Shown: positions 1,921 to 61,000 of the stretch, piece after piece
Layout: the number at the start of each line of letters is the position of its first letter
Position numbering within the stretch: position 1 is the first letter of the stretch
Assembly: GCA_947629555.1 (NCBI GenBank)
Contig: CANRED010000004.1
Span: 2,925 to 66,924 of the forward strand
Source of the DNA: an uncultured Clostridia bacterium
GTDB taxonomy: Bacteria > Bacillota > Clostridia > TANB77 > CAG-508
DNA length: 64,000 bases
Direction: 5' to 3'
Notes under the pieces: model-generated
Database searches by the model: none
What the model saw: only the letters and a program-made list of their open reading frames with translations
What the model was told of the DNA's origin: nothing
Translations under genes and position numbers: made by a program

Positions 1921-1957
1921 TTGTAGGGGTCGCTTAGGTTAAGCGACCCGCATTACA
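1921..1957 (-). repeat. GC-rich hairpin plus CCCTACA-tail element (copy a, reverse orientation)
   Basis: The minus strand reads gcgggtcgcttaacctaagcgacccctacaatttgcaa. This is the same subfamily as the copy at 55455-55495. Confidence 0.6.
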
Positions 1958-1979
1958 AAAATAAATCAAAACATTACAA

Positions 1980-3683
1980 TTATTTCTTTATTAAATATCT
2001 TTTTATCTTCATTGTTGTAGTTTTTTCAAATTCTTCTTCCCTTATATGTATTTCTTTTATGTGCTTGTATATTACTAAATCTTGTTGAATTCTTTTTACC
2101 TCTTCCCATACTAATTGCTTAATTTCTTCATCTGTTTTTGGAGAATCTTTAAATTTTTCTTGTATATATTCTTTGTTAGGTCTAATTTCTGCACATAACA
2201 CTAAATCGTCTTTTTCTTCTCTTAAATATACTAATGATTCTAATATGTAATCACTGTCATTTAATAAAGCTTCAATTTCTTCTGGGTATATATTTTTACC
2301 GTTTTTTGTTATTAGTACATTTTTCTTTCTACCTGTAATATAAACAAACCCGTCTTTATCTTGATATGCTAAATCTCCTGTACGAAACCATCCATCGTTC
2401 AATACTTCTTTTGTGGCTTCTTCATTTTCATAGTAACCAAGCATTACATGATCACCTTTTGTTGCAATTTCTCCTACTCCATCTTCATTTACGTCTAATA
2501 TTGCAAACTCTGTTCCTACTAATGGAAGTCCTGCTGCACTATCTCTAAACTCTACATCTCTATTTACTGCTACAATTGGAGAACATTCAGTTAATCCATA
2601 TCCTTGTATAATTGCTATTCCCAACTCTCTAAATCCTTTAGATACTTCTGGATTTATTGCTGCTGCCCCTGTTATATATAATTTTTGTTTTCCACCTAAT
2701 TGTTCATGTATACTCTTAAATACTTTCTTTTTTATGTGAATTCCTAATTTATCTAAGAAATTAGTAATTTTAATCATTTTTTTAACTGTTTTTGTTTTGC
2801 CTTGTTTATCAATTGCATCCCATAGTTTCTTATATAATGTTTCAAATACAAGTGGAACTGATAAAAACATTGTTGTGTGATATTCTTGAAGATTCTTTTG
2901 AATATGTCTTAATCCTTCGCAATATGCAACTGTTGCTCCTCTATATAAAGGCATTAAGAATCCGCATACACACTCATATACATGGTGTATTGGTAGCATT
3001 GATAAAAAAGTATCTTCTGGTTGTATATTTACCATTTGACAAAATTGATGCATGTTATATGTTAAATTTTTGTGTGATAACATTACAGCCTTAGATTGTG
3101 AAGTAGTTCCAGATGTAAACAATAATTCTGCCATTACATTTTCATCTATTTTTGCATCAATAAAGTTTCTATCTCCTTTTTTTACAAGTTCCTTACCAGT
3201 ATCTATTAATTTATGTAAAGATAAAAACTTTCCATTGTCTTCTTCTAAATCCATACCGATATAATACAATAGTATATTGTTCTCATTGTACAATGACTGT
3301 ACTTTTTCTTCATATTTACCTGAATATATAATGCAGTCTACCTTTGCTCTTTCTAAACAACTTTTTAGTTCATTTAATGGAAGTTGTTTATCTAAAGGTA
3401 CAACTACACCTGTTCCATTTACTGTAGCAAGATATGATATTGCCCATTCATATCTATTTTCTCCAATAACTGCTATTCTTTTATTTTTTAATCCTAAATT
3501 TATAAGAGCTGTTCCTAATGCATTTACATCTTCTAATACTTGTGAATACATAATTGGCTTATGCTCTCCTTGCTCTGTTTTTACATAATAAGCAACATTA
3601 TTTTCAAATAATTTGCAACTATCTTCTAATAATTGCTTTATATTTTTTACATCTCTAACTTGATACAAGGGTTTGTTTTTCAT
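1980..3683 (-). CDS. AMP-dependent synthetase / long-chain-fatty-acid--CoA ligase
   Basis: The AMP-binding motif FTSGTTSQSKAVMLSHKNL and the GYGLTE motif are present. The length (567 aa) is typical of FadD-like ligases. Confidence 0.85.
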   Translation of the reverse strand: MKNKPLYQVRDVKNIKQLLEDSCKLFENNVAYYVKTEQGEHKPIMYSQVLEDVNALGTALINLGLKNKRIAVIGENRYEWAISYLATVNGTGVVVPLDKQLPLNELKSCLERAKVDCIIYSGKYEEKVQSLYNENNILLYYIGMDLEEDNGKFLSLHKLIDTGKELVKKGDRNFIDAKIDENVMAELLFTSGTTSQSKAVMLSHKNLTYNMHQFCQMVNIQPEDTFLSMLPIHHVYECVCGFLMPLYRGATVAYCEGLRHIQKNLQEYHTTMFLSVPLVFETLYKKLWDAIDKQGKTKTVKKMIKITNFLDKLGIHIKKKVFKSIHEQLGGKQKLYITGAAAINPEVSKGFRELGIAIIQGYGLTECSPIVAVNRDVEFRDSAAGLPLVGTEFAILDVNEDGVGEIATKGDHVMLGYYENEEATKEVLNDGWFRTGDLAYQDKDGFVYITGRKKNVLITKNGKNIYPEEIEALLNDSDYILESLVYLREEKDDLVLCAEIRPNKEYIQEKFKDSPKTDEEIKQLVWEEVKRIQQDLVIYKHIKEIHIREEEFEKTTTMKIKRYLIKK

Positions 3684-3699
3684 AAGACCTCCTAAAATT

Positions 3700-4947
3700 T
3701 TATTTTTGTTTATATAATTTAAATAAATCTTTTAATTTTAATCTATCTCCATAGTGTAATATTGCTGCTGAATATACTTTTATTGATATTGCTGCAAGTA
3801 TAACAACAGTTATCGTAAGTACAACTATTGAAATTGCAATTTCTCCAGCGGTTGCTGCACCTGCAAGTATTCTCCCTGGCATTGAAAATGCTGATGAAAA
3901 TGGAAATATTGCAGCAAATTTGCTACCAGCACTATTTGGAATTGTTGATGTAGTATATGCCAAGAAAAATGATATTACTGCTATAAAAGATATTGGTCCA
4001 GAAGCTGCTTGAACGTCTTCTGCTTTACTAACAGTTGCACCTGTTACTGCACTTAAAAATGCATATACTGTATATCCTAAAATAAAGTATACTATACATA
4101 TTAATATATCTGGTACATTTAAACTTAAAGTACTTAAAACTTTTGATACAATATCAAAATCGCTTGGTATAAATATATTATAAGATATTACTGCAACTAA
4201 TATTAATCCAATTAATTGGCCTAATCCTACTAATCCCATGGCTATTGTCTTTCCAATAACAATTTTTGTTGGAGTAGTTGAAGTAACTAAAGTTTCCATT
4301 ACTCTTGAAGTTTTTTCGCTTGATATTGATGTTGAAACAGTATATCCATAAAAATATATTGCAAAGAATAATATATATGATGAAATCATAGCAATAAAGA
4401 AATTTTGATTTCCTGTATTTTCATTTAATTCTTGTACCTCAAAGCTTATTGGTGTATTTATAATTTGTAATAATTCTTGAGATGTTTCAGCCTCTACCAA
4501 CAATTTATTTGTTTGTAGGCTCTTTATAATATTTGAAAATACACCTGCAGTTTCTTGTGTTTCTGCAAAAGCACTATCTTCTTTTATAATATAGTCAAAT
4601 GAAACTATACCATTTTCATCTTGTTTTAAAATAATTGCTGAATCTATTTCTTCATCATTTATTTTTTGTTTTACTTCGTCTATTGATTTATCTGTAAAAT
4701 ATTCTATGCTATATCCAAGGTCCATTTGGCTAAAAGTTTCTGAAGAAGCACTTATTATATTTTCGTTATCTACTATGTATATTTTAGAACCTATTTCTTC
4801 TTCATCAGAACTAAATGCATTTATTATGTTAGGTATATTGCATAATCCAACTATTATTAATGCCATAATTATGTTTACGATTATAAATGATTTTTTAGTT
4901 ACATATTCTTTTACAGTATATTTTATAATTGCAAATAAACTTTTCAT
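3700..4947 (-). CDS. ABC-2 family transporter permease
   Basis: It is a multi-TM hydrophobic protein with a large extracytoplasmic loop after TM1. It is translationally coupled (ATGA overlap) to the upstream ABC ATPase. Confidence 0.6.
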   Translation of the reverse strand: MKSLFAIIKYTVKEYVTKKSFIIVNIIMALIIVGLCNIPNIINAFSSDEEEIGSKIYIVDNENIISASSETFSQMDLGYSIEYFTDKSIDEVKQKINDEEIDSAIILKQDENGIVSFDYIIKEDSAFAETQETAGVFSNIIKSLQTNKLLVEAETSQELLQIINTPISFEVQELNENTGNQNFFIAMISSYILFFAIYFYGYTVSTSISSEKTSRVMETLVTSTTPTKIVIGKTIAMGLVGLGQLIGLILVAVISYNIFIPSDFDIVSKVLSTLSLNVPDILICIVYFILGYTVYAFLSAVTGATVSKAEDVQAASGPISFIAVISFFLAYTTSTIPNSAGSKFAAIFPFSSAFSMPGRILAGAATAGEIAISIVVLTITVVILAAISIKVYSAAILHYGDRLKLKDLFKLYKQK

Positions 4948-5843: not shown

Positions 5844-5852
5844 ATACCTCCT

Positions 5853-7040: not shown

Positions 7041-7084
7041 ATAATTTGCTCTCCTTTTTTCATATATATTTTTTTGGAACAATG

Positions 7085-7140
7085 AGGGCGTCGTTCCCTA
7101 CATTGCGGGTCGATGTGGGCATCGACCCCTACAATTATTT
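7085..7140 (+). repeat. Two adjacent GC hairpin / CCCTACA elements (a truncated copy plus a full copy) between the two ack paralogs
   Basis: The sequence is gggcgtcgttccctacattg followed by cgggtcgatgtgggcatcgacccctacaatt. The second part is nearly identical to the element at 35641-35672. Confidence 0.6.
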
Positions 7141-7189
7141 TGGTATTTTAATAAAGAGGATAATGTATATTTATCCTCCTACAAATGCA

Positions 7190-8380: not shown

Positions 8381-8556
8381 AAATTTCTCTCCTTTTCTTG
8401 GGCATTCACCTGTATGTACAAGTACACCCATATTTGGTGCGATTAATGTATTATTTTTTATATTAAGCCCGAACAACAGCGGAATCCCTAAAAGTTCTCC
8501 CTGCGCTTGAGGGTTAATATAAAAAATAATACATTATATCGTTAGTTAATTAAAAT

Positions 8557-11014: not shown

Positions 11015-11506
11015 TTAAATTCTTACCCCTTCTATATGCAAATATCTTATTTTTTGAAAATCGTATGATAATATACTTCTTCCAAATGAATCAAAAGTAT
11101 GTGTTGCAACAAAAGTATTTGATAAATTTTCAGGATAATTTTTAGCTACAATTACTAAAGTATGAGAAAATTGATTGCCATCAAAACTTAACTGTGCAAT
11201 ATCGCCTTCTTCTAATTTTTTTAAGTTACTATCTTTTGCATAAGGTCCAACACCACTATTATTTATTAAAAATTTATATAAATATTCCACACCACTCCAT
11301 GATGGTGATTTGTCATTTCCATTATTATAGTACCATCCATACTTGTTATAATTCATAACTTCACTACCTGCAAAAATACATTGTGATGCAAAACTTGTGC
11401 AATCTCCTCCTACAGGATCAAAATTATAATATTTTGGATTTCTCAAGTATGCCCATTTTTTTGCATATTCAACCACTTTTTGCCTATTGTATAGTCTTTC
11501 TTTCAT
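11015..11506 (-). CDS. Putative amidase-domain (Amidase_6-like) protein
   Basis: The GGDCTSFASQCIFAG motif resembles the putative-amidase-domain family. An ATG with a GAGGTG RBS lies at 11504-11506. Confidence 0.55.
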   Translation of the reverse strand: MKERLYNRQKVVEYAKKWAYLRNPKYYNFDPVGGDCTSFASQCIFAGSEVMNYNKYGWYYNNGNDKSPSWSGVEYLYKFLINNSGVGPYAKDSNLKKLEEGDIAQLSFDGNQFSHTLVIVAKNYPENLSNTFVATHTFDSFGRSILSYDFQKIRYLHIEGVRI

Positions 11507-13203: not shown

Positions 13204-13478
13204 GTTTTCCTCCTGAATATTGTAATTTTTATACTCATATAAAATACCATATATGTATTTTTTTGTAAATATTAAACGAAAAAAAATAATATTTGTATAT
13301 GATAATTATTATCTTTCAGTATTTTTTTACTTGATAAAATTTCAAAAGTCTTTACTTTTTATTATACGTGTCAAAAATAGTTGTATTCTGCTTAAATAAT
13401 TTATTATACTATCTTTCTTGTATAATTCAATGGTATTTAAAATAAAAAAATTATACTAACGTAAAAATATTTTTATTA

Positions 13479-15606: not shown

Positions 15607-16752
15607 TATCTTTGCAACACATTCTTCATACGTTTTTTTCTTTACTTCTTCGTCAAATGCTAAGATATCATCTACTGAATTTAATTTTCTTTTTTCATAC
15701 ATATTCATTATTTTTTCTATTCCATTTGGTATGTCTGTGTATTTTATCTTTTTATTCAAAAATGCATCAACTAAAACTTCGTTTGCAGCATTTAAAACTA
15801 CTTGATAACTATGTCCTTTTCTAATTGCTTCATAAGCTAATCTTAAGCATTTAAATTTATTTAAATCTGGCTTTTCAAAAGTTAAATCATGTATATCAAA
15901 TAAATTTATTTTTTGTATTTGATTCTTCTCTAATCTAGTAGGATAATTTAGTGCATATGCTATTGGTATTTGCATAGCAGTTGGTCCTAAGCTTGCCATT
16001 ATTGTTCCATCTTTATATTGTACCATTGAATGTACTATACTTTTTCTATGTACAACTACTTCAATCTGACTTGGATCTACATCAAATAACCATTTTGCTT
16101 CTATTATTTCAAATCCTTTATTCATCATTGTTGATGAGTCTATTGTAACTTTTGCTCCCATGCTCCATGTTGGATGATTTAAAGCTTGCTCCACTGTTAT
16201 GCTATCATTTATTTCTTTATCAAAAAATGGTCCGCCTGATGCTGTTAATAATATTTTATCAATTTTATTAGTTTCTTCTCCCCTTAAGCATTGCATAATT
16301 GCACTATGTTCACTATCTACAGTAAGTAAAGTTGCATTATTTTCTTTTGCTGTTCTCATAATTAATTCTCCACCCGCAACTAATACTTCTTTATTTGCTA
16401 ATGCTACAGTTTTTCCGTTTTTTATCATATTATAAGTAGGCTTTAGTCCAGCAATCCCAACTAACGCTGAAACAGAAATATCAAAATCAACTAATTGAGA
16501 TATTTCTTCCATACCGGTATCTCCATAATATACATTTATGTCTTTAAATATAGCACTTATTCTATCTGCATTTTCTTTTGAAATTATATAAACATTCTGT
16601 GGCTTAAATTCTTCGATTTGCTTTATTAATTTTTCTACATTCTTTCCAGCAACTAAAGTTACTGCTTTAAACAAATTAGGATTTTCTCTTATTACATTTA
16701 ATGTACTATCTCCAATTGAACCTGTAGAGCCAAATATTGCCACTCTTTTCAT
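15604..16752 (-). CDS. dxr: 1-deoxy-D-xylulose-5-phosphate reductoisomerase
   Basis: MKRVAIFGSTGSIGDSTLNVIRENP...LVAGKN is the canonical Dxr N-terminus, and the length is 382 aa. Confidence 0.9.
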   Translation of the reverse strand: MKRVAIFGSTGSIGDSTLNVIRENPNLFKAVTLVAGKNVEKLIKQIEEFKPQNVYIISKENADRISAIFKDINVYYGDTGMEEISQLVDFDISVSALVGIAGLKPTYNMIKNGKTVALANKEVLVAGGELIMRTAKENNATLLTVDSEHSAIMQCLRGEETNKIDKILLTASGGPFFDKEINDSITVEQALNHPTWSMGAKVTIDSSTMMNKGFEIIEAKWLFDVDPSQIEVVVHRKSIVHSMVQYKDGTIMASLGPTAMQIPIAYALNYPTRLEKNQIQKINLFDIHDLTFEKPDLNKFKCLRLAYEAIRKGHSYQVVLNAANEVLVDAFLNKKIKYTDIPNGIEKIMNMYEKRKLNSVDDILAFDEEVKKKTYEECVAKI

Positions 16753-24374: not shown

Positions 24375-24480
24375 ATGTGAAAATTAGTGAATAATGAAAA
24401 ATGAATAGTGAATGGTGAATAGTACATAAGTGCTCTTATCTACTATTTTTCAACCATTCACTATTAACTCTTCACTATTC
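24375..24480. repeat. Inverted arrays of tandem heptamers, (GAATAGT)n on the left arm and (ACTATTC)n on the right arm
   Basis: The left arm reads gtgaataatgaaaaatgaatagtgaatggtgaatagt. The right arm reads caaccattcactattaactcttcactattcacttttcact. Related arrays occur at 32262-32305 and 61017-61055. Confidence 0.55.
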
Positions 24481-24507
24481 ACTTTTCACTGCGACCGCTA
24501 GGTCGCA

Positions 24508-24527
24508 CTTATGGTGCGGATGAGAGG
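24508..24527 (-). repeat. 20-nt direct duplication of the tRNA-Leu 3' end (ggtgcggatgagaggacttg), 173 bp beyond the intact tRNA
   Basis: It is identical to 24701-24720. The sequence diverges immediately afterwards. Confidence 0.6.
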
Positions 24528-24699
24528 ACTTGCCATAGGCCGCGTCGTAAAAACAATCCAAAGGGATTGTTTTTGTTCACTTTCGGTGCTCTTGCAAGCC
24601 CCAAAAGCTGAACCACTCCTTTTCAATTCCTCTCATTTTATTAATTATTCTATAAAAATAGTTTTCTAAAAAAATAAACTTAGTCATATAAACTAAGTT

Positions 24700-24783
24700 T
24701 GGTGCGGATGAGAGGACTTGAACCCCCACGTCAAAGACACTAGATCCTAAGTCTAGCGCGTCTGCCAGTTTCGCCACATCCGC
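24700..24783 (-). tRNA. tRNA-Leu (anticodon UAG), class II with a long variable arm, with encoded CCA
   Basis: The minus strand reads GCGGATGTGGCGAAACTGGCAGACGCGCTAGACTTAGGATCTAGTGTCTTTGACGTGGGGGTTCAAGTCCTCTCATCCGCACCA. It has a 7-bp acceptor stem, the anticodon loop CTTAGGA and a TTCAAGT T-loop. A TTGACA/TAATAT promoter sits at ~24800-24840. The 66-aa ORF at 24577..24777 is spurious. Confidence 0.85.
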
Positions 24784-25413: not shown

Positions 25414-25447
25414 GACGGGTTGCATAGTATGCAACCCCTACACTATT
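25414..25447 (+). repeat. GC hairpin / CCCTACA element abutting the dnaE stop codon
   Basis: gacgggttgcatagtatgcaacccctacactattcttcac. Confidence 0.55.
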
Positions 25448-29043: not shown

Positions 29044-29186
29044 ATACGGTTATATATCATTTTTTTAATGAACGAATGTGGGGACCGACAAATTAGAGGC
29101 TATTGCAGAAATTACGAAAGTAAATTTCGGCATATAGCCTCTTATGCAGCCCCGGAGTGAATTAAAAAAATTATATATAACCGTAT
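29044..29186. ncRNA. Candidate structured RNA element (copy 1), with a conserved core enclosed by a long AT-rich outer helix
   Basis: It is homologous to 42805-42945. Both the outer helix and the internal helix (gaggctat/atagcctc here, ctggctgtag/ctacagccag in copy 2) differ in sequence but keep their pairing. A conserved hairpin gaaatttacgaaagtaaatttc is also present. Confidence 0.45.
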
Positions 29187-32261: not shown

Positions 32262-32305
32262 ATAACTATTCACTATTCATTCTTCACTATTAACTATTCA
32301 CTAAT
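32262..32305. repeat. Tandem heptamer array (ACTATTC)n in the pepF upstream region
   Basis: taactattcactattcattcttcactattaactattcactaat. Confidence 0.5.
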
Positions 32306-32325
32306 ATTTCTTGGGTAATGTCTTT

Positions 32326-32370
32326 GTAGAGCGGGTCGTCGAGACGCCGACCCCCTACAGTTTGCAATAT
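32326..32370 (+). repeat. GC hairpin / CCCTACA element
   Basis: gtagagcgggtcgtcgagacgccgaccccctacagtttgcaatat. Confidence 0.6.
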
Positions 32371-33807: not shown

Positions 33808-34233
33808 ATGGCAAAGACAGCAATTAGTATTGAGACATCTAGCTTTGAAAATATCAAAGCTAACTACTCCAGCCGTGAAACCGCATCTACTTCTTTCACT
33901 CTTACAAGAGAAGAAAGTTTGGACAGACTTGAGACCCTTATGCGGATGATGATTTCTATCTTTGATAAGATAAAATCTAACGATACGTTTGAGGCCTCAA
34001 ATGAAACGGAGAAAAAAATTTACAGTAATAAAGACTTCAGTTTAGAAATTGTCTATACTATAGAATCTTTTATTAAACTGTTACGCTTTTCTACTGTAGG
34101 GCAAATCATGTGGCACTTTGACTTTGATATGCCTCTTTACTCTGAGGATTATATCCTCCATCTTCGTTTTCCTGGCGGTTTTAAGTTCTGGCGTGAATTT
34201 TATTTTTCTCATCCAGAAGATAAAATTCAGTAA
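33808..34233 (+). CDS. Hypothetical protein (141 aa) with a C-terminal FPGG(F/K)(K/L)FW motif
   Basis: An RBS plus ATG is present, and a terminator hairpin cccccacatactatgtatgtggggg follows. It has a paralog immediately upstream. Confidence 0.5.
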   Translation: MAKTAISIETSSFENIKANYSSRETASTSFTLTREESLDRLETLMRMMISIFDKIKSNDTFEASNETEKKIYSNKDFSLEIVYTIESFIKLLRFSTVGQIMWHFDFDMPLYSEDYILHLRFPGGFKFWREFYFSHPEDKIQ

Positions 34234-35640: not shown

Positions 35641-35672
35641 TATACTTTAACGGGTTGATGTGGGCATCGACC
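35641..35672 (+). repeat. GC hairpin / CCCTACA element
   Basis: cgggttgatgtgggcatcgacccctacagac sits between convergent genes. Confidence 0.6.
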
Positions 35673-35738
35673 CCTACAGACTTTCACCGCGTTTAAGGAT
35701 GTGGCAAATTTTTGTATTATATTTTGCATTATGTTATA

Positions 35739-39885: not shown

Positions 39886-42186
39886 ATGTTATGTTCAGTA
39901 TGCAAAAAGAATGTTGCAGTTATTTTTACAAATAAAAAAGTTGGAGATAAAAATGAGCTTGAAGGCTTATGCTATAAATGTGCAAAAGAAAAAGGTATAA
40001 ATCCTCTTGAAGTTTTAGCTAAACAAGCTAATCTTTCTGAAGAAGAATTAGAAGATATGTCTAGCCAATTTGAAAATATGTTTAATGATATGTCTGATTC
40101 ATTAAATTTAGATGATATAAATATAGAAGATCTTACATCTGAATCTGAAGATGATATACCTATAAAATCTTTTATTGCTAATATATTTGGTGGAAATAAA
40201 CAAAGTAATAGTTCTGCTAATTCATCAGAAGATTCAAGCAAAAAAAGAGTAAAAACAGAAAAAAAGCCAAAAGAAAAGAAAAAGAGTTTCTTAGATATTT
40301 ATGGCACTAATTTAACAAACAAAGCAAGAAACAATGAATTAGATGAAGTAATTGGTAGAGATAGAGAAATACAAAGAATTATACAAATTTTAAATAGACG
40401 TGCAAAAAACAATCCTTGCTTAATTGGTGAACCTGGTGTTGGAAAAACCGCCATTGCTCAAGGTTTAGCTATTAAAATTGCAAATAAAAAAGTACCTGCA
40501 AAATTATTGAATAAGGAAGTTTATTTATTAGATATGACTGCTATTATTGCTGGTACGCAATTTAGGGGTCAATTTGAAGGAAGAATGAAATCAATTATTG
40601 ATGAATGCAAAAGTGCAGGCAATATAATACTTGTTATTGATGAAATTCACAACATTATAGGTGCTGGAGATGCAGAACATTCCATGAATGCTGCAAATAT
40701 TTTAAAACCTTCCCTATCTAATGGAGAAATTCAATTAATTGGTACTACTACTTTAAAAGAATATAGAAAATATATTGAAAAGGATTCTGCTTTAGAAAGA
40801 AGATTTCAACCAGTACTTGTTGAAGAGCCTTCTATTTCTGATACAATAGAAATTTTAAAAGGTATTAAAAAATACTATGAGGAATTTCATAAAGTTCGTA
40901 TTTCTAATCATGTTATTGAACAAACTGTTAAAATGTCTGAAAAATATATACATGACAGATTTTTGCCTGATAAAGCAATAGATATTTTGGATGAGGCATG
41001 CTCAAGAATTAATTTAAATAACAAAGAATTATATGAGTTAGAATTGCTAAAAAATAGATTAGCAGATATTCAAGCAGAAAAAGAAGAAGCTGTTTCAACA
41101 GACTCTATTGAAGATTATCAAAAAGCTGCTAATTTAAAAACTGAAGAATGTAGTCTTTTAGAAAAAATAGATGCATTAAATAAGAAACTAGTTTTAACAA
41201 ATCTTACTGTTCAAGATATTGCTGAAGTAATAGAAAATACAACTAAAATTCCAGTTAAAAAAATTACAGAAGCAGAAACTGAAAAATTATTAAACTTAGA
41301 AACAAATCTTCATAAAAGAATTATTGGTCAAGATGCAGCTGTAGAAGCGGTATCTCGTGCAATTAGAAGAAACAGAGCCGGACTTGGAAGTACTAAACGT
41401 CCCCCATCTTTCATATTTGTTGGTCCAACTGGTGTTGGTAAAACAGAGCTTGCAAAAACTTTAGCATATGAAATGTTTGGAGATGAAAACTCTATCATTA
41501 GAGTAGATATGTCTGAATATATGGAAAGTCACTCTACATCTAAGCTTATTGGTTCTCCTCCTGGATATGTTGGATATGATGATGCTGGTCAATTAACAGA
41601 AAAGGTAAAAAGAAAACCTTATTCTATTATATTACTTGATGAAATTGAAAAAGCACATCCAGATGTATTTAATATTTTATTACAAATATTAGATGATGGT
41701 AGGCTTACAGATGCCCAAGGAAATACTATAAGTTTTGAAAATACAATTATAATCATGACTTCTAATGCTGGTTCTAATTTAAATAACAATTCTATTGGTT
41801 TTGGAAAGCAAACTATGGATAAAGGAAAAATAGAATCTGCTCTAAAAGAAATATTTAGACCTGAATTTTTAAACAGAGTTGATGAGATTGTTGTATTTGA
41901 TAGTTTAACAAAAGAACAATTACTACAAATTATAGATTTATTATTAAATGACACACGAAATGCATTGCTAGACAAAGATATTACTTTACAAATAAGCGAT
42001 GCTACAAAACAATATATTTTAGATAAAGGTATAGACTTAAAATATGGTGCAAGACCTTTAAGAAGAGCAATACAAAGATATATTGAAGACGAAATTTCTG
42101 ATATGATATTAAGATCAGAATTAGTTGGTGGTCAAACAATTTCTGTAGATGTTGAAAATGATAATTTAAAATTTGATGTAATTTAA
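39886..42186 (+). CDS. clpE: ATP-dependent Clp protease ATP-binding subunit ClpE (N-terminal Zn-ribbon, D1 and D2 AAA+)
   Basis: The N-terminal CxxC...CxxC zinc finger replaces the Clp_N domain. Two Walker A boxes are present ([13 protein letters not shown] and [13 protein letters not shown]). Confidence 0.85.
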
Positions 42187-42206
42187 TTTATGGAGGTAAT
42201 ATTAAT

Positions 42207-42747
42207 ATGCTAAAACATATTCCAAATATACTTACTATTATGCGATTTATACTAATACCATTTATTATACTATATGCAATACAAGATAATTATATTGCTG
42301 TTGCATTAATTTTAACACTATCTGGTATTACTGATGTTCTTGATGGAAGCATTGCTAGAAAGTATAACTTTATAACAGATTTTGGAAGACTTATAGACCC
42401 TTTAGCAGATAAATGCACTCAAATTTCTGTTTTAGTTGTTTTATGTATAAAAAATATAATTCCTCGTTGGATTATATTTGTAGTAATTATAAAAGAACTA
42501 TTATCAGTAATTGGAGCAATCGTACTTTATGGTAAACAATTAGTTACATCAAGTAAATGGTTTCGGAAAACTTGCAACAGTTACGTTTTACTTAGCCATA
42601 TTATCATCTATGATAATTAGACAATTTAACTTAAATTATAATTTTGATTTATATATTTACTATATAGCAGTTACATTAACAATATTCTCATTTGCAATGT
42701 ATGTAAGGTTATATATAACACATAAATTTATACCAAGAAGTAATTAA
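42207..42747 (+). pseudogene. pgsA: CDP-diacylglycerol--glycerol-3-phosphate 3-phosphatidyltransferase with a +1 frameshift near 42564
   Basis: The CDP-alcohol phosphatidyltransferase motif DVLDGSIARK...GRLIDPLADK is present. The ORF ends abnormally at ...SSKWFRKTCNSY*. Dropping the C from tttCgga gives WFGKLATVTFYLAILSSMIIRQFNL...RLYITHKFIPRSN, a normal PgsA C-terminus. Confidence 0.65.
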
Positions 42748-42804: not shown

Positions 42805-42945
42805 AAAAAAATGTATATATTTTTTCAAGACGAACGAATGTGGGGACCGACAAATTACTGGCTGTAGAAGAAATTACGAAAGTAAATTTCGGCCTACAGC
42901 CAGTTATGCAGCCCCGGAGTGAGCCGTAGAAAAAATATATACATT
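42805..42945. ncRNA. Candidate structured RNA element (copy 2), flanked by a perfect 22-bp inverted repeat aaaaaaatgtatatattttttc
   Basis: See copy 1 at 29044..29186. The core is ~85% identical, and helices P1 and P2 co-vary between the copies. Confidence 0.45.
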
Positions 42946-53925: not shown

Positions 53926-54144
53926 TCCTTTTCCTTTAATATCTAAATTATTTTATTATATTTAGACATTTTTTGCAATGGATTAGGTGAAAAAATTTGG
54001 GTTGAACATCATGTAATCTTATAAAATATATACATTTAATTTCGTATTATGTATAATTAAATAAAATATTGAAATTTAAAAAATTGTTCATTTTTTTGTA
54101 ACGAATGTAAATTATAGTCGTCTATATATATGAAAGGAGGAAAA

Positions 54145-54633
54145 ATGCAGGAAATTTATGAAAAGTATTCAAAACTAATATATAATTATTTAGTTTCATT
54201 AACTAAAAATTCAGAAATATCTCAAGAACTGATGCAAGAAACATTTTATAGTGCTATTAAAAACATAAATAAATTTAAAGACGAATCCTCCATAAAAACA
54301 TGGCTTTTTAAAATTGCTCAAAACAAGTGGAAAGATTATATAAAATCTTCTAATAATAAACAAGCAATTCAATTAGACGAAAATGCAGAAAATACAGTTA
54401 TAGCACCATCTTTCGAAAATAATCTGCTTGAAAAAGAAGAGTTAATCTGTCTGTACAAATTTATACATACATTAGACGAAAATACTAAAGAAGTTATATA
54501 TTTAAAACTTAAATCTGACTTTAGCTTTAAAGAAATAGGAAATATTTTAGGAAAATCTGAAGAATGGGCAAGAGTTACCTTTTATAGAGGAAAACAAAAA
54601 TTAAAGGAGGAATTTAAAAATGAAGGATTTTGA
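54145..54633 (+). CDS. ECF-type RNA polymerase sigma factor (sigma-70 regions 2 and 4)
   Basis: Region 2 is QETFYSAIKNINKF...WLFKIAQNKWKD. Region 4 is LKSDFSFKEIGNILGKSEEWARVTFYRGKQKLKE. An RBS GGAGG precedes the ATG at 54145. Confidence 0.8.
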   Translation: MQEIYEKYSKLIYNYLVSLTKNSEISQELMQETFYSAIKNINKFKDESSIKTWLFKIAQNKWKDYIKSSNNKQAIQLDENAENTVIAPSFENNLLEKEELICLYKFIHTLDENTKEVIYLKLKSDFSFKEIGNILGKSEEWARVTFYRGKQKLKEEFKNEGF

Positions 54634-55447
54634 AGAAGATAAAAATTTGCGAGAACAAGTTCAAACAGGAATTGAAAATAGTATTGAGTTAAATCATTTA
54701 AAGAAAGTTCATAAAAAAATGAATTTATTGCGTAATATCATAATTTCTATAATATCTATTATTGCTATTGTTTTGTTAATTTTATTTATTAGGTACAATA
54801 GGGTTAACAGTATTTTGAATAAAGCATATAGGCATATTAAACAAATGGCTAATAGTGGCAATTATATATTAACTACTACACAGCATTACTTTTATTATAA
54901 AGAAAATAAAACAATAGACGCTGAATATAAGTATTTTTATAAAGATGGAAAGTATAAATTAGAAGATACTGTAACAGATGATAATGATTATAAAGAAATA
55001 CCTCAATCAAATACATGCTATTATAAAGATAATTCATCAGAAGAAATTACTATTTTTCACAATTTAAAATTAATACAATCAAGTAAAAATTTCTATGAAT
55101 ATATAAAAGGAGATCGTTTTTTTAAAACATTTCATTTTGTTACAGATTCTATTAGACTTAAAAATTCTTATAAAGGTTTATATATTCTTGAGTGTGCGAC
55201 ATATAATATAAGAACCGATTATTTTAATGGTGAAGAATGCTATGTCTTAAAATCAACATATAACAGTAATGGATATGACGAATTCTGGTTTTCAAAAGAA
55301 AATTATTTTATGGTTAGAACAATACAATCATATGATTCATATTATAGCGAACATACTTATAGTTTAGTTTTTGATCAAGTAACTGATGAAGATGTAGATT
55401 CTTCAAATATTAAAAACATTTATAGCGATTATGATATAAAATTTTAG
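54620..55447 (+). CDS. Putative single-pass anti-sigma factor (overlaps the sigma gene)
   Basis: It overlaps the sigma gene by 14 nt. It has a short cytoplasmic N-terminus, one TM segment (IIISIISIIAIVLLILFI) and a ~200-aa extracytoplasmic Tyr/Asn-rich domain. Confidence 0.55.
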   Translation: MKDFEEDKNLREQVQTGIENSIELNHLKKVHKKMNLLRNIIISIISIIAIVLLILFIRYNRVNSILNKAYRHIKQMANSGNYILTTTQHYFYYKENKTIDAEYKYFYKDGKYKLEDTVTDDNDYKEIPQSNTCYYKDNSSEEITIFHNLKLIQSSKNFYEYIKGDRFFKTFHFVTDSIRLKNSYKGLYILECATYNIRTDYFNGEECYVLKSTYNSNGYDEFWFSKENYFMVRTIQSYDSYYSEHTYSLVFDQVTDEDVDSSNIKNIYSDYDIKF

Positions 55448-55454
55448 GTAAAAA

Positions 55455-55495
55455 ATGGGTTGCTTGACCCTAAGCGACCCCTACAGCTTGCATCG
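55455..55495 (+). repeat. GC hairpin / CCCTACA element
   Basis: gggttgcttgaccctaagcgacccctacagcttgcat is the same subfamily as 1921-1957. Confidence 0.6.
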
Positions 55496-55559
55496 ATTTT
55501 TCTATATAAAAATAAATGCTTTTGAGGTATACCTCAAAAGCATTTTAAATTATTATTTA

Positions 55560-57812
55560 TTAAATACACCTTGCATTATATTCATTTACTATTATTTTTC
55601 TAACTTCTACATTTTCTTCATTTTCAAGATACATATTAGTTTTAAATTCATCTTTTTTTACTTGTTCAAATTCATACATACTATTTTTTAATAGAACAGT
55701 TTGTTCTTCATTCATTCCTTCTGGTAAAGTTTTATTAAAGTTGTCGTAAAAAATTATATTTGTATTATATAATATTGGCATATTTTCTTGTATGTTTACT
55801 TTGTATACTGATATTTCTTTAGGAGCTTCTTTACAATTTCTTAATGCATCTTCTAAGTTTATATAGTATTTTCCATATTCTTTTTCTAGTATCGTTTCTG
55901 CATCTGCTACTACATATATACTCATATCATAATTAGATTTTATTTTCTTAAAGCTTTCATTTAAATTATTTTTTATTTCGTTAATTTTATTTGTATATTC
56001 TTCTAAAGTAGTATTCTTTGTTATACTAAGTATTTTTAGTTTGTCTTTTTTATTTTCTCTATGTTTTTGATTTCCTAAATTCTTTATTTTTGATATATTA
56101 TCTTCTATGTTTCCAAATATATCATAATCTTGAAAATTATATACTTTCATATTTTCTTCTTGCTCTTGTTTTAACGTATTTAAAGATTCTTCTGCTAAAC
56201 CTATATTGTTTATTACATCTATAAGTTCCGTTGTTGCTATATATGCACTATCTTGTTCTATTTTAGATAGTTTAATTCTTTGTGTTTTATCCATTCCATA
56301 AGCCAAATCTTCAAAATCGAATTCATATTTAAATACCTTTTTTATTTGTTTTTTGCTTGTATCAGTTTTAGAAGTTCCCATTTCTAAGGCTTTTAACTCA
56401 TCTTTGTTTGCAAATTTCCAAAAATCAAAAATACTTTTTTTGTGCTTATCTATTTCTTCTATATATAATGTTGCATTTTTTACTTTTAGTTCTAAATTAT
56501 TTATTTTATTTTTCAATGCGTCAATATCTAATTTTAAGTTGTTTAACTCTTTTGTTTTTTTATCTGTTTGATAATATAAAGTTACTAAATCTTCTATTGT
56601 ATAATAATTTTTATTACTTAGGTTTTCTAATGTATCTTGAGAAGCGGTATTGTCATTTTCTACAGCTTCTATTGTATTAGTTGTAGGTTGTTTAGTTAGC
56701 TTTTTGTGTTTAAAGAAGTATTTTACTTTTCCAAAGAAGGTCTTTTTACATTCCAAATATACTGCAATTTGCCTTTGTTTATCTAGATACTCGTTTTCTT
56801 TTTCCTTTGCAATACCCTTTAATTTTGTTAATTCTTCTTGATTTTTCGTAATTTCTTTTTCTTGCACTGAAGTTTGTTTTTCTAAATTAATATATTCATT
56901 TTCTATAAATTTAGATAAATTATCATATTGAATTTTTGTATTATTATAATAAAACTCTAGCTCACTTTTAGAATTAATTTTAGTTTTGAATTTATAATGC
57001 ATAGATAACTCTGTTTGCAAAATAAATAATGCTTTTATATATTGATAAAATGTGAATGCATCTTCTTTGGTAGTTAAAGTTATTTTATATTTGCTTTTTA
57101 TATTTTCATATACATTAGTTTGTCCTACTATTTGTAAGCTCAAATTATTATTTTTATCATATATTTCGTATATATTGGTCCAATCTTTAGTAAATAGCCA
57201 TAAGTAATTTTCTATATCTTTAATTTCAGATTTTTTTAAATATTTTTCTGAGTAATCTACATAATTAATAGGTACAAATATTTGTGGTACTTTTTTTGAT
57301 TTACCTTTAAAAAATTCTATTTGCATTTTTAAAAGTAAAAATAATTTATCATATTCAGTATCTTCACTTGTTATCATCATAAAATATTGATTTAAAGCTT
57401 CAGAATAATATATTTGCCAAGCATAACTTTTATCGTATTTTACATCAAAAGGTATTTTTTTATCTAATATTTTCTGTTCACTTTCTGCAAGTTCAATTTC
57501 TTCTATTGTAACCTGCTTTAACATAGAAAGAAATTTAGCATGTCTTTCTATATTTTCTTCACTATTTGGCTCTAAATAAGCCCCTATTGGAGCAGCCTTT
57601 GCATACTTTTCTTCAATATCATCTAATCTATTTTTTGGGGTTATTAATATTTGTATTTTATCTATTGGAATATATCTATATACAATATGTTTATTATCCT
57701 CTTTTGTTTTAGAAGGTCTAAAGTCTAGAGGTGTAAAATCTTTTAGAAAAGTTGGTATATTCATTAAATCTAATCCGATATATTTTAATTTTTCTTCTAT
57801 TGTATTTGACAT
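55560..57812 (-). CDS. Large (750 aa) Lys-rich coiled-coil hypothetical protein
   Basis: A long ORF with extensive predicted coiled coils, no TM segment and no recognisable catalytic motif. Confidence 0.5.
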   Translation of the reverse strand: MSNTIEEKLKYIGLDLMNIPTFLKDFTPLDFRPSKTKEDNKHIVYRYIPIDKIQILITPKNRLDDIEEKYAKAAPIGAYLEPNSEENIERHAKFLSMLKQVTIEEIELAESEQKILDKKIPFDVKYDKSYAWQIYYSEALNQYFMMITSEDTEYDKLFLLLKMQIEFFKGKSKKVPQIFVPINYVDYSEKYLKKSEIKDIENYLWLFTKDWTNIYEIYDKNNNLSLQIVGQTNVYENIKSKYKITLTTKEDAFTFYQYIKALFILQTELSMHYKFKTKINSKSELEFYYNNTKIQYDNLSKFIENEYINLEKQTSVQEKEITKNQEELTKLKGIAKEKENEYLDKQRQIAVYLECKKTFFGKVKYFFKHKKLTKQPTTNTIEAVENDNTASQDTLENLSNKNYYTIEDLVTLYYQTDKKTKELNNLKLDIDALKNKINNLELKVKNATLYIEEIDKHKKSIFDFWKFANKDELKALEMGTSKTDTSKKQIKKVFKYEFDFEDLAYGMDKTQRIKLSKIEQDSAYIATTELIDVINNIGLAEESLNTLKQEQEENMKVYNFQDYDIFGNIEDNISKIKNLGNQKHRENKKDKLKILSITKNTTLEEYTNKINEIKNNLNESFKKIKSNYDMSIYVVADAETILEKEYGKYYINLEDALRNCKEAPKEISVYKVNIQENMPILYNTNIIFYDNFNKTLPEGMNEEQTVLLKNSMYEFEQVKKDEFKTNMYLENEENVEVRKIIVNEYNARCI

Positions 57813-57880
57813 TTAGAACCTCCTTAAAATTTTGCGAAGACACATTTTATACTCTATTTTGGGTATGCCTTCGGAGTGCG

Positions 57881-57975
57881 GAACGACGGGGGCGTCGTTC
57901 CCTACAACATTCGTAATATATTTTGTGTTTTTGGAATGTGGAACGACGTTGGTCTGTTCCCTACAACATTTGCAA
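57881..57975 (+). repeat. Two tandem GC hairpin / CCCTACA elements
   Basis: The sequences are ggaacgacgggggcgtcgttccctacaacattcg and ggaacgacgttggtctgttccctacaacatttgcaataaa. Confidence 0.6.
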
Positions 57976-57982
57976 TAAATTT

Positions 57983-60691
57983 TTATTCATTTTTGCTGGT
58001 ATTTATTTTAAATAATTTTGCTAGTTCTACTATTAATATTGGTGAGAATACAAGTATTACAACTTCAATTATGTGCATTGTTGGTAATACTGCTAAGTCA
58101 AATATTTCTCTTAAGAATGGAATAAATAGTAATACGAGCATTAATGCTGTTGAAACTACTGTTGCTAATATTAACATTTTATTATTAAATATTCCTGTTT
58201 TAAATATAGATTTTTTATTATCTCTAACATTATATACATGCACTAATTGTGATAATGCTAATACGCAAAATGCCATTGTTTGACCTATTTGTATTTTTTC
58301 TTGTTCACTTACATTTGGTGTTGAAAGTCCTATTGCAAATGCCAATAAGGTAATAGCTCCTATCATAATTCCCTGGTATATTATTCTTCTTGTCATTCCA
58401 GCTGTAAATATGCCTTTTTTAGGTTTTATTGGCTTTCTTTTCATAATGTCTTTTGCAGCAGGATCAACCGCTAATGCTAATGCAGGTAATGAATCTGTTA
58501 CTAAATTTATCCATAAAATGTGTATTGGTAATAATGGCTCTAAACCTGTAATATCTGAAATGCCAAACCATTTTGCAAGTAATGGAGTTATTAATATTGC
58601 TACAAATAATGTTATTATTTCTCCAACATTACTTGATAACAAAAATTGTATTGCTTTTAAAATATTATCATATATTCTTCTTCCTTCTTCTACTGCAGAA
58701 ACTACTGTTGCGAAATTGTCGTCTGTTAATATTACATCTGCAGCTTCTTTTGCAACATCTGTTCCAACAACTCCCATTGCACAACCTATATCTGCATTTT
58801 TTAGAGCAGGTGCATCATTAACGCCATCACCTGTCATTGCAACGATTTCGCCATTTGCCTGCCATGCTTTTACTATTCTTACTTTATGTTCAGGAGATAC
58901 TCTTGCATATACTGCATATTTTCTTACATTTCTCGTAAGCTCCTCATCTGTCATTTTTTCTAATTCTGCACCAGATATTGCCTCACTTTCATCTTGCAAT
59001 ATACCTAAGGCTTTTGCTATTGCTATTGCAGTTATTTTGTGGTCTCCTGTAATCATTACTGGCTTAATTCCTGCAGATTTACATTTTTCTACTGCCTCTT
59101 TTGCTTCAACTCTTGGTGGATCTATCATTCCCACCATACCTATATATATTAAATCTGACTCTAATTCATTTATTTCGTTTCCTTCTGGTTTATGGTCTAA
59201 TTCTTTATAAGCAAAAGCTAAAACTCTTAGTGCATTTGTTGCCATTTGCTCATTTTCTTTATTTACCTGAATTTTATAATTATCTAAATCATCCTTTATT
59301 TCTGTATTAAATAAGTATTTGTTACATCTTTTAAGTAATTCATCAACTGCACCTTTTGTATACACAATATATTTATCGTTTGATTCATGTACAGTTGTCA
59401 TTAATTTTCTCTCAGAATCAAATGGTATTTCTGCAACTCTTGGCAATTCTTCATATATTGATGGTTCAAAATCTAATTTAAAGCCCAAATCTATTAATGC
59501 TGTTTCTGTTGGGTCTCCTGTAAGTTCATTATTTGCAGATATTTGAGTATCATTACATAGCATACTCGTAAAGATTAATTTTTCCAAATCTGTATCTTGC
59601 TTTTCCATTAAGTTAGACGATACATCTACGGTTTTACCATTGTAAAATATTTTTTCTACTGTCATTTTATTTTGAGTTAATGTTCCTGTTTTATCTGAAC
59701 AAATTACTGTTGCACTACCTAAAGTTTCAACTGCAGGTAATTTCTTAACTATTGCATTTCTTTTTACCATTCTTTGAACGCCAATAGCAAGAACTATTGT
59801 AGAAACTGCTGGCAACCCTTCTGGAATTGCTGCAACTGCTAAACTAACCGCAGTCATAAACATGTGAATTGGCTCTTTTCCATATAACAAACCTACTGCA
59901 AATATTATTGCACATATAACTAACGCTGCTATTCCTAGAGTTTTACCTAATTTATCTAATTTTACTTGTAAAGGTGTTTGCGCATCTACTGTTGAACTAA
60001 TCATGTCTGCAATTTTTCCAACCTCTGTATTCATAGCAGTTTCAACAACTATTCCTTTTCCTCTACCGTACGTTACCAAACTAGAAGAAAACATCATATT
60101 AACTCTATCGCCTATCCCAATTTCTGTTTCTTCTATTGTTCCAATGTTTTTTTCAACCGGTACAGATTCTCCTGTTAATGCAGATTCTTGCACTTTTAAA
60201 TTAACGGCTTCTACTAGCCTTATATCTGCAGGTACAGAATCTCCTGTTTCTAATACTACAATATCTCCCGGCACAAGCTCTTTTGAAGGAACAACTTGCA
60301 AAGAGCCGTTTCTAATTACCTTTGCTGCATGACTACTTAATTTTTGCAATGCCTCCAAAGACTTTTCTGCTTTACTTTCTTGTGCTACACCAATAATAGC
60401 ATTTACTAGAATTACTATAAGAATTATTATAGTATCTGTTATGCCTTCTCCTTCGCTTATACCAACAATTCCAGATACTATTGCAGAAATTATAAGTACA
60501 ATTATCATAAAATCTTTAAACTGTGCTAAAAATTTTTGTAATAAACTTTTCTTTTTTCCTGCCTTTAATTCATTTAATCCATATTTTTCTTTTCTCTTTG
60601 TAAATTCTTCGTTACTTAATCCATTTTCTAAATCAGTATTTAATAATTTCTTTGTTTCTTCTATTGATTTGTTAAACCAATTTTCTGCCAC
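57983..60691 (-). CDS. Calcium-translocating P-type ATPase (P2-type, PMCA/SERCA-like)
   Basis: The phosphorylation motif DKTGTLT, TGES, the GDGVNDAPAL hinge and ten TM segments are present. The N-terminus MAENWFNKSIEETKKLLNTDLENGLS is typical. Confidence 0.9.
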   Translation of the reverse strand: MAENWFNKSIEETKKLLNTDLENGLSNEEFTKRKEKYGLNELKAGKKKSLLQKFLAQFKDFMIIVLIISAIVSGIVGISEGEGITDTIIILIVILVNAIIGVAQESKAEKSLEALQKLSSHAAKVIRNGSLQVVPSKELVPGDIVVLETGDSVPADIRLVEAVNLKVQESALTGESVPVEKNIGTIEETEIGIGDRVNMMFSSSLVTYGRGKGIVVETAMNTEVGKIADMISSTVDAQTPLQVKLDKLGKTLGIAALVICAIIFAVGLLYGKEPIHMFMTAVSLAVAAIPEGLPAVSTIVLAIGVQRMVKRNAIVKKLPAVETLGSATVICSDKTGTLTQNKMTVEKIFYNGKTVDVSSNLMEKQDTDLEKLIFTSMLCNDTQISANNELTGDPTETALIDLGFKLDFEPSIYEELPRVAEIPFDSERKLMTTVHESNDKYIVYTKGAVDELLKRCNKYLFNTEIKDDLDNYKIQVNKENEQMATNALRVLAFAYKELDHKPEGNEINELESDLIYIGMVGMIDPPRVEAKEAVEKCKSAGIKPVMITGDHKITAIAIAKALGILQDESEAISGAELEKMTDEELTRNVRKYAVYARVSPEHKVRIVKAWQANGEIVAMTGDGVNDAPALKNADIGCAMGVVGTDVAKEAADVILTDDNFATVVSAVEEGRRIYDNILKAIQFLLSSNVGEIITLFVAILITPLLAKWFGISDITGLEPLLPIHILWINLVTDSLPALALAVDPAAKDIMKRKPIKPKKGIFTAGMTRRIIYQGIMIGAITLLAFAIGLSTPNVSEQEKIQIGQTMAFCVLALSQLVHVYNVRDNKKSIFKTGIFNNKMLILATVVSTALMLVLLFIPFLREIFDLAVLPTMHIIEVVILVFSPILIVELAKLFKINTSKNE

Positions 60692-60740
60692 TAAAAAACA
60701 CTCTCCTTTATTATTAAATAAGACTATTAAAGAAATACCA

Positions 60741-60756
60741 TTGATGTAAACATCAA
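60741..60756. promoter_or_regulatory. Perfect palindrome TTGATGTAAACATCAA ~50 nt upstream of the Ca-ATPase start; candidate operator
   Basis: Two 7-bp arms are separated by 2 bp, in the 5' leader/promoter region. Confidence 0.3.
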
Positions 60757-60960
60757 GCCTTTCTTTAAAAGTCTTGCTTGCCTTATATAAAGGTTACTAA
60801 CCAGAAAAATAATTTCGAGATTGTTGATTAGTAAATTTTTAAGCTACTCCCTTTTAAACTGTGATAATTTTATCATTATAAATTTTACTTTGCAATAGTT
60901 ATTAGCAGGATTTAAAAAAATATTCGATAAGTTTCTTCGTAAGTTAATTGCATATGCAAT

Positions 60961-61000
60961 TAAAACGGGTCGCATAACATGCGACCCCTACAGTTTGTAA
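60961..61000 (+). repeat. GC hairpin / CCCTACA element
   Basis: acgggtcgcataacatgcgacccctacagtttgtaattt. Confidence 0.6.

Follow-up and report, generated by a model that had tools for sequence, protein, structure and literature searches.

Probable GTAG-footed REP elements of the type associated with group 4 RAYT transposases in an uncultured gut Clostridia bacterium

Introduction

The defining mark of repetitive extragenic palindromes (REPs) is a GC-rich palindrome whose 5′ foot is GT[AG]G (Nunvar 2010; Di Nocera 2013, PMC3733652; Quentin 2018, PMC6006769). In E. coli, binding by the REP-associated tyrosine transposase (RAYT) TnpA-REP requires the hairpin and the GTAG, and the inverse strand (iREP) is cut between CC and TACA, the iREP type II site (PMC3333891). 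Closest to the elements considered here are the REPs of subclass 2.4 (Quentin et al. 2018, PMC6006769), which correspond to RAYT group 4 (Bertels et al. 2017, PMC5581495). In that subclass the stem base consists of three G-C pairs, “double foot” REPs occur, and REPs also lie within tnpA-REP itself (PMC6006769); its protein, of ~194 aa, carries NH[IFV]H, WQ, and YIxNNP motifs (PMC6006769, Table 1). Here we describe a family of hairpins followed by CCCTACA in a 64-kb stretch (27.9% GC) of contig CANRED010000004.1 from an uncultured Clostridia bacterium (assembly GCA_947629555.1); “the window” denotes this whole stretch of analyzed DNA. The hairpins are very probably GTAG-tagged REPs of the type tied to subclass 2.4/group 4 RAYTs (TnpA-REP), which are HUH-tyrosine transposases. 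The element is of a known kind, here in an uncultured low-GC gut Clostridia bacterium. To our knowledge, work on REP/RAYT systems has dealt almost exclusively with Proteobacteria and Cyanobacteria.

Results

The sequence-only reading of the window had described dispersed GC-rich hairpins carrying CCCTACA, and this family is real. The heptamer occurs 11 times against 2.3 expected, a count reached in none of 100 shuffles, and 10 of the 11 occurrences lie directly 3′ of a GC-rich hairpin. The remaining one, at 34095 on the minus strand, is a chance match, because it has no hairpin and lies within an open reading frame (ORF). A hairpin scan blind to the tag (GC-rich, at least 7 bp, at least 5 G-C pairs) returned 86 hairpin ends; CTAC came next after 8 of them and was the most frequent 4-mer following GC-rich hairpins in the window. 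Thirty dinucleotide-preserving shuffles yielded a mean of 4.4 hairpins, and none of the 30 contained a single CTAC-tagged one.

On the opposite strand CCCTACA reads TGTAGGG, and the hairpins are therefore canonical GTAG-footed REPs seen from their complementary side. T-GTAG stands directly 5′ of the stem in all ten copies (CTACA on the other strand), and the stem then begins with GGG, or with GGA in type c. The REP-strand unit is 5′-(optional head ATTGCAAAY(GT))-T-GTAG-(GC-rich stem of 9-10 bp, loop of 3-4 nt)-(G/A)C-3′, and the complementary strand reads hairpin-CCCTACA-tail. The sequence at which the E. coli iREP is cleaved, CCTACA, forms part of the invariant 7-mer. When the ten copies are aligned, 91% of the cells in the proposed 9-bp helix are paired, six of the nine stem pairs show double-sided changes, and none of 500 shuffles matches this level of covariation; sliding the 3′ arm by 1-3 columns as a control gives only 35-51% pairing. 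The hairpin stems covary between copies. Folded as single-stranded DNA, six copies reach -9.6 to -11.6 kcal/mol (z -4.3 to -5.6), with less stable folds for two degenerate copies (7076 and 57939) and two wobble-bearing ones. Six of the ten hairpins are perfect.

All ten copies are intergenic, at a density of 1 per 6.4 kb, and mostly lie just downstream of stop codons. Five hairpin subtypes (a-e) are represented, each by only 1-3 copies; the copies stand alone or in two head-to-tail dimers (7076/7107 and 57880/57939), and one has a double foot (Table 1). The neighbors named earlier, two acetate kinase genes and the dnaE stop codon, are confirmed. Some details in that account need correction: the sixth copy, given as 35641-35672, lies at 35652-35678, and the copies at 1921 and 55455, said to share loops exactly, are only similar, with 3 differences and opposite genomic orientation.

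Insertion was examined at the spacer between an ATPase gene and the gene for a 750-aa protein (window 55560-57812), using homologues of the latter to find syntenic contigs in two related lineages at 74-78% protein identity. The distance from the ATPase stop to the next start is 26-32 nt in L247, L249, L250, and L252 (L-numbers denote loci or contigs of related genomes) vs 170 nt in the window. The extra ~140 nt consists of two head-to-tail REP units (57861..57917 and 57939..57976); in each, a head (ATTGCAAATGT or ATTACGAATGT) is followed by T-GTAG, the hairpin, and then a short 3′ module. The comparison of filled and empty spacers shows that REP insertion happened; the filled spacer displays no target-site duplication. 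Upstream of the ATPase gene, the orthologous site in L121 is occupied by other GTAG REPs, which form a cluster. REP density also differs among these relatives, with 13 copies in 22 kb of L247 and 1 in 22 kb of L250, L252, and L253, as compared to 10 in the 64-kb window. In L247, one REP (11165-11190) places the peptide VGVGVPDDP in frame into the orthologue of the 750-aa protein.

Two further genic insertions in the window have REPs at their borders: a sigma-factor gene with its 275-aa partner, and a 951-aa gene without a Pfam match, are both missing from the otherwise syntenic L250/L252 region. At L046 3005-3031, a REP lies inside a HemK-like methyltransferase ORF, the reading frame of which appears broken.

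The copies are also biased in strand. GC skew on the plus strand is -0.12 to -0.28 across the whole window, and the minus strand is therefore the G-rich leading-strand sequence and also the lagging-strand template. Nine of the ten copies present the GTAG hairpin on this G-rich minus strand. In L247, where plus-strand skew is +0.20, GTAG is on the plus strand in 12 of 13 copies. A Y1 enzyme working on single-stranded DNA at the replication fork would be expected to produce such a bias.

One genome per species was scanned for GGGTYG-N4-20-CRACCCCTACA, giving more than 120 loci. Some matches, in high-GC genomes and inside genes, are due to chance, and among the matches listed there are dozens of clean hairpins in gut and rumen Clostridia, Oscillospiraceae, Lachnospiraceae, Acutalibacteraceae, and Megasphaera. 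Many hairpins, such as GGGTCGTCGRGGACGCCGACCCCTACA, are identical across taxa at local GC contents from 25% to 60%. The same is true of GGGTCGATGTGGGCATCGACCCCTACA, the window hairpin at 7107-7133; over window positions 7104-7137, a termite-gut Oscillospiraceae locus (L051) is identical at 34 of 34 nucleotides. Carriage by phages is not supported, the commonest REP having 1 match in 2.9 million viral contigs, nor is carriage by plasmids, since a plasmid tblastn with the RAYT homologue P0002 gave only distant matches at <40% identity. As a side observation, Megasphaera loci (L093, L086, L115), including cultured M. elsdenii, carry a related REP, GGGTCGYCCACGTGGCGACCCCTACA, and an inverted REP pair lies at L093 872-960, ~300 nt upstream of a RAYT gene. 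Megasphaera could be a culturable model for these REPs.

RAYT genes were sought in six-frame ORFs of all loci with E. coli RayT, its sequence verified as PDB 4ER8. Its match to the Clostridia proteins is weak (E 1e-6). This query identified RAYT-like ORFs, among the loci listed, in L010, L032, L093, and L039, each time with the REP match inside or beside the ORF. Further RAYT genes stand at or contain the matched REPs in L123, L124, L125, and L126. Against NCBIfam NF047646 (REP_Tyr_transpos) the proteins reach E 1e-16 to 4e-17, short of the equivalog cut-off, and their matches to Pfam Y1_Tnp are weak (E between 1e-7 and 6e-3). Two linked proteins score 60.9 and 62.5 bits on REP_Tyr_transpos, and one of them alone matches transpos_IS200, at 16.4 bits. 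A large-database search with the L032 protein, after repair of its frame, returned 2,794 homologues (P-numbers), some named “REP element-mobilizing transposase RayT”. Within a set of 120 homologues, most have NHVH or NHIH; IWQRNYYEHIIR and Y[IM]xNNP (YMQNNP, YIENNP, YIQNNP) are further motifs of the family. The homologues are 155-200 aa long, and in-frame internal REPs encode peptides within them. By the features tabulated in PMC6006769 (Table 1), the linked proteins match RAYT subclass 2.4 (Bertels group 4).

In each of the RAYT genes of L123, L124, L125, and L126, two inverted copies of the same hairpin bracket the HUH motif. Among the 120 homologues, the peptides specified by the N-side and C-side internal REPs co-vary as an inverted hairpin pair would, as in VGVGVPDDP/GSSRTPTPT, VGVDAHIDP/GSMWASTPT, and VGAPAHRCP/GHLWAGAPT. 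The type b hairpin of the window (7107-7133) is identical to those in the L125 and L126 RAYT genes, where it encodes VGVDAHIDP and GSMWASTPT, and P0027 and P0053 contain it; the type e hairpin matches the P0002/P0005 type.

Of these loci, L032 is the closest syntenic relative among the matches listed, with 76% nucleotide identity over clpC-pgsA (window 39886-42620). Its RAYT gene is frameshifted and lies immediately downstream of this block; at the matching position, the window has an unrelated structured repeat instead, one copy of the ~91-nt element described below. In L032 (6661-7286, minus strand), the loop of the C-side internal REP is 2 nt longer and contains a TAA codon that splits the gene. 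P0003, P0009, and P0010 are distinct database proteins that end at the same ...GSP position. The truncated form of RAYT is therefore widespread and not an assembly error.

The tail that follows CCCTACA had been read as guide-like and as often extended by TTTGCAAT. The first suggestion holds for CCCTACA itself, which is GTAG on the other strand; for the TTTGCAAT extension, a guide-like role is unproven. The extension is present in 5-6 of the ten copies at an offset of 1 or 3 nt, and among the matches listed from the genome scan, which did not specify the tail, it follows CCCTACA in few loci (L046, L048, L114). On the REP strand it forms a head, ATTGCAAAYGT-TGTAG or the shorter ATTGCAAAY-TGTAG, which is constant within this lineage. 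The head ATTGCAAAY(GT) precedes at least 6 different hairpins across the window, L247, L046, and L114; the head-bearing REPs of L046 include head-to-tail arrays. Metagenome scanning for TTRCAAAYTGTAGGGG found the same head on unrelated REP families in soil and termite-gut contigs; the contigs returned for the head plus TGTAGGGG were mostly from soil and termite gut, some of them representing other REP families that share TTGCAAAYTGTAG. This scanning recovered no RAYT bearing the ATTGCAAAYGT head. Within RAYT coding sequences, only partial similarity to the head was found: AATGTTGTAGGG in the P0006/P0017 type and a homologous longer head in L123 and L124. That longer head, TGCAAAA..ATGTCARACRW-TGTAG, is common to the in-gene N-side REP and to dispersed copies in L123 and L124, and the spreading unit is therefore longer than the hairpin.

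The role of the hairpins after insertion was considered with a terminator tool, run on 55300-61200, and by reading the sequence for T-runs at the other copies. The only REP flagged by the tool is 60967-60987, which has a T-run, and a separate canonical terminator hairpin (55514-55545) stands beside the REP at 55457. About two of the ten copies have a T-run after the stem; at 55457, it follows on the minus strand. Given these counts and the separate terminator, the REPs are not primarily terminators. G-T wobbles occur only in 35652-35678 and 55457-55485, on the plus strand, the same positions being C-A mismatches on the minus strand, and both REPs lie downstream of plus-strand genes. These two cases hint at selection on the RNA hairpin.

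Table 1. REP copies and other features of the window, with heptad repeats of the relative L247 (CCCTACA positions with strand)
Feature	Position	Strand	CCCTACA	Sequence layout	Context
REP, type a	1911..1951	+	1922(-)	head ATATTGCAAAT 1911-1921; T-GTAG 1922-1926; hairpin GGGTCGCTTA-GGT-TAAGCGACCC 1927-1949	30 nt past stop of AMP-binding gene; sole copy with GTAG on + strand; -11.1 kcal/mol, z -5.3
REP, type c, degenerate	7076..7102	-	7096(+)	GGAACAATGAGGGCGTCGTTCC + CTACA	tandem with next copy, 31 nt apart, between two acetate kinase genes; -5.7 kcal/mol
REP, type b	7107..7133	-	7127(+)	GGGTCGATG-TGGG-CATCGACCC + CTACA	
REP, type d	25417..25442	-	25436(+)	GGGTTGCAT-AGT-ATGCAACCC + CTACA	adjoins stop codon (25443-25445) of dnaE (DNA polymerase III alpha)
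REP, type e, double-foot	32309..32370	-	32353(+)	on + strand: GTAG 32326-32329, GC, GGGTCGTCG-AGA-CGCCGACCC, C-CTACA 32355-32359, tail TTTGCAAT 32361-32368	32326-32359 has GTAG on one side, CTAC on the other; segment 32309-32332 homologous to module beside copy 57880
REP, type b variant	35652..35678	-	35672(+)	GGGTTGATG-TGGG-CATCGACCC + CTACA	between convergent genes; single non-Watson-Crick pair is the G-T wobble
REP, type a variant	55457..55493	-	55479(+)	GGGTTGCTTG-ACCC-TAAGCGACCC + CTACA + GCTTGCAT	between convergent genes
REP, type c, tandem unit 2	57861..57917	-	57900(+)	head ATTACGAATGT, T-GTAG, GGAACGACG-CCCC-CGTCGTTCC, 3′ module GCACTCCGAAGGCATACCC	head-to-tail with unit 1, spaced 59 nt
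REP, tandem unit 1, degenerate hairpin	57939..57976	-	57959(+)	head ATTGCAAATGT	
REP, type d	60967..61001	-	60986(+)	GGGTCGCAT-AAC-ATGCGACCC + CTACA + GTTTGTAAT	
Sigma-factor gene and 275-aa partner	54130-55447	+			bordered by REP
951-aa gene	61080-63935	-			bordered by REP
~91-nt structured element	29070-29160	+			intergenic
~91-nt structured element	42832-42922	+			intergenic
7-nt-period repeat	24386-24421	-			
7-nt-period repeat	24455-24490	+			
7-nt-period repeat	32267-32300	+			
7-nt-period repeat	61024-61050	+			
7-nt-period repeat, L247	near 3640-3668				
7-nt-period repeat, L247	near 13340-13372				
7-nt-period repeat, L247	near 15838-15866				
Copy of tRNA-Leu 3′ end	24513-24534			GGTGCGGATGAGAGGACTTG	~190 nt from tRNA-Leu gene
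tRNA-Leu gene	24700-24783	-			

Other repeats occur in the window. The two copies of the ~91-nt structured element are 90% identical and have in common an exact 18-mer, TATGCAGCCCCGGAGTGA, of which 0 are expected by chance; in the inner stem, both arms differ between the copies (GAGGCTAT/ATAGCCTC vs CTGGCTGTAG/CTACAGCCAG). The element has no convincing Rfam match, two weak matches to plant miRNAs (E 0.3-0.9) being far below gathering scores. At the gathering threshold, Rfam identifies only tRNA-Leu in the whole window, and ARAGORN concurs. A 7-nt-period repeat, TATTCAC/TATTAAC/TCTTCAC (GTGAATA when read from the complementary strand), has 11 matches vs 0.6 expected and reads UAG-N4-UAG on the RNA strand. 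It directly adjoins the TGTAG head of REPs in relatives, and two of its clusters in the window lie within ~35 nt of a REP. The ~20-nt copy of the tRNA-Leu 3′ end adjoins heptamer repeats and a short GC hairpin (GCGACCGCTAGGTCGC) and may be the remnant of an old integration.

Discussion

The sequence-only reading had proposed a REP/BIME-like or RAYT-substrate-like element (BIME, bacterial interspersed mosaic element). This proposal is supported by the T-GTAG foot, the covarying stems, the identical hairpins linked to RAYT genes in relatives, and the filled and empty insertion site. Our confidence that the hairpins are REPs of the subclass 2.4/group 4 type is high. Several observations nevertheless weigh against it. 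No RAYT was found in the window when its six-frame ORFs were compared with E. coli RayT, the L032 RAYT, and the family hidden Markov model, nor in ~1.4 kb past its right end and ~2.9 kb past its left end. The 64-kb window contains no inverted REP pairs (REPINs/BIMEs). All other retrieved assemblies of the organism are 100% identical, and no strain-level gain or loss is seen. The strand bias is confounded with gene orientation, and the 2-4 degenerate copies would equally fit an old, inactive family. Group 4 RAYTs, moreover, have only a weak association with repeats (Bertels et al. 2017, PMC5581495).

Alternatively, the copies would be relics, their seeding RAYT since lost or inactivated, and would now persist as immobile, slowly decaying sequences kept only where they are harmless or useful as RNA hairpins. 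We consider this possible but rather unlikely. It draws on the lack of a RAYT in the window and its short extensions, the degeneration of 7076 and 57939 and the mismatches in other copies, the five subtypes at so few copies each, the frameshifted L032 RAYT with its stop in the internal REP loop, the common truncations represented by P0003, P0009, and P0010, and the identity of the retrieved strains. However, six copies are perfect hairpins, and the tandem pair 57880/57939 at the filled site reflects lineage-specific activity since the split from relatives at 74-78% protein identity. The inspected DNA, moreover, amounts to ~68 kb of a genome of probably 2-3 Mb.

The copies might instead be MITE/PATE-like miniature derivatives of IS200/IS605, moved by TnpA-IS200 rather than by a RAYT, which is very improbable. 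A hairpin with an adjacent conserved tetranucleotide is consistent with such an origin, as is a strand bias like that of IS200/IS605. However, the foot is GTAG, as in REPs, and the linked proteins carry the class 2 RAYT Y...NP motif, not the Y...Q of IS200. Two of them score far higher on REP_Tyr_transpos (60.9/62.5 bits) than on transpos_IS200 (16.4 bits, one protein only). The sequence-only reading had also envisaged that all copies could be the ends of one insertion sequence (IS) family. This does not hold: no Y1 transposase ORF is present in the window or beside any copy, and the flanking genes checked are housekeeping genes; TnpB was not specifically searched for.

Ordinary Rho-independent terminators or mRNA-stabilizing hairpins that arose in place, with CCCTACA convergent, are hardly credible: the position of most copies just past stop codons, the T-runs at 60967-60987 (terminator-like) and 55457 (minus strand), and the two wobbles on the strand transcribed from adjacent plus-strand genes agree with them, but a T-tract in ~2 of 10 copies (judged with the tool over 55300-61200 and by reading elsewhere), the canonical terminator 55514-55545 adjoining a REP, the invariant 7-mer and shared 8-11-nt head that termination cannot explain, and the same hairpins inside RAYT coding sequences and other ORFs of relatives do not.

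If the hairpins are REPs of the group 4 type, a RAYT of this genome presumably moved them, by a chemistry that may resemble that of E. coli. By analogy with the E. coli enzyme, the RAYT would bind the folded hairpin together with its 5′ GTAG where the lagging-strand template is exposed as single-stranded DNA. It would then cleave between C and T, typically at the CC/TACA junction of the inverse strand, via a 5′-phosphotyrosine intermediate, and strand joining could give rise to tandem duplications and further copies between genes. Once inserted, the REPs would remain as stable hairpins in 3′ untranslated regions and operon spacers, where protection of mRNA 3′ ends or occasional termination are possible secondary roles.

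More tentatively, the RAYT gene in gut Clostridia might itself carry the REP master copies, as the co-varying inverted pair and 5′ head, in frame around the HUH motif. We regard this as possible but doubtful. As part of this proposal, the head would be a second recognition or cleavage module, of a kind not known from other REP systems. If gene-borne master copies exist, gene and substrate would travel together. Such linkage would explain why the same 27-34-nt REP (GGGTCGTCGRGGACGCCGACCCCTACA, GGGTCGATGTGGGCATCGACCCCTACA) is found in metagenome-assembled genomes (MAGs) of different families at 25-60% GC, and why the head ATTGCAAAYGT-TGTAG is constant on interchangeable hairpins.

The REP family of the window is clean, looks active, and is linked by sequence to an extensive RAYT family of ~2,800 homologues. 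In gut MAG annotations, its hairpins account for odd short peptides (VGVGVPDDP, GSSRTPTPT) as well as GC-rich islands and assembly breaks. The REPs mark recent intergenic and in-frame insertion sites and might be used to tell strains apart. Substrate choice by group 4 RAYTs could readily be tested with the constant head and the REP pair embedded in the gene, both of which are worth specialist attention.

Comparison with Known Systems

The subterminal hairpins of IS200/IS605 resemble the window REPs in that Y1 HUH enzymes act on them as single-stranded DNA, a short guide lies 5′ of the foot, and the lagging-strand template is favored. They differ in flanking tnpA/tnpB within discrete ISs, whereas there is no IS body here and the linked enzymes are class 2 RAYTs. 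The GTAG-tagged repeats surveyed by Di Nocera et al. (2013, PMC3733652), such as SMAG of Stenotrophomonas, are closer: they have GTAG, head-to-tail dimers, and G-T pairs in stems, lie between co-directional or convergent ORFs, and occasionally insert in frame into ORFs. Their sequences differ from those of the window, however, and the text of that survey makes no mention of Clostridia or Firmicutes.

The REP/BIME system of E. coli (TnpA-REP, RayT/YafM, PDB 4ER8; Ton-Hoang et al. 2012, PMC3333891) likewise has a 5′ GTAG hairpin with a complementary CC/TACA cleavage sequence, and its copies are intergenic, mostly at 3′ ends, and amplified in tandem. The E. coli enzyme differs in belonging to subclass 2.2 (DHLH, WE, YIHYNP) and in requiring a stem mismatch or bulge, whereas stems here are perfect. 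E. coli REPs also occur in inverted pairs (BIMEs), whereas the window has none, such pairs occurring only inside the RAYT genes of relatives.

Subclass 2.4 (group 4) is the closest match, although it has been described mainly from Cyanobacteria, Bacteroidetes, Chlorobia, and Caldilineae and not from gut Clostridia of low GC content. Two features set the present system apart from the available portions of PMC6006769 and PMC5581495, which do not mention them: the co-varying inverted in-gene pair around the HUH motif and the constant head ATTGCAAAYGT on many dispersed copies. The likenesses extend from the element to the enzyme. The window REPs have the 5′ GTAG foot, a long perfect stem, and three G-C pairs at its base; double-foot variants are found at window 32326-32359, L059, and L097; and REPs flank or lie within the RAYT genes of L032 (syntenic), L123, L124, L125, L126, L010, L093, and L039, in-frame REPs, the same protein motifs, and similar lengths being shared with the described subclass.

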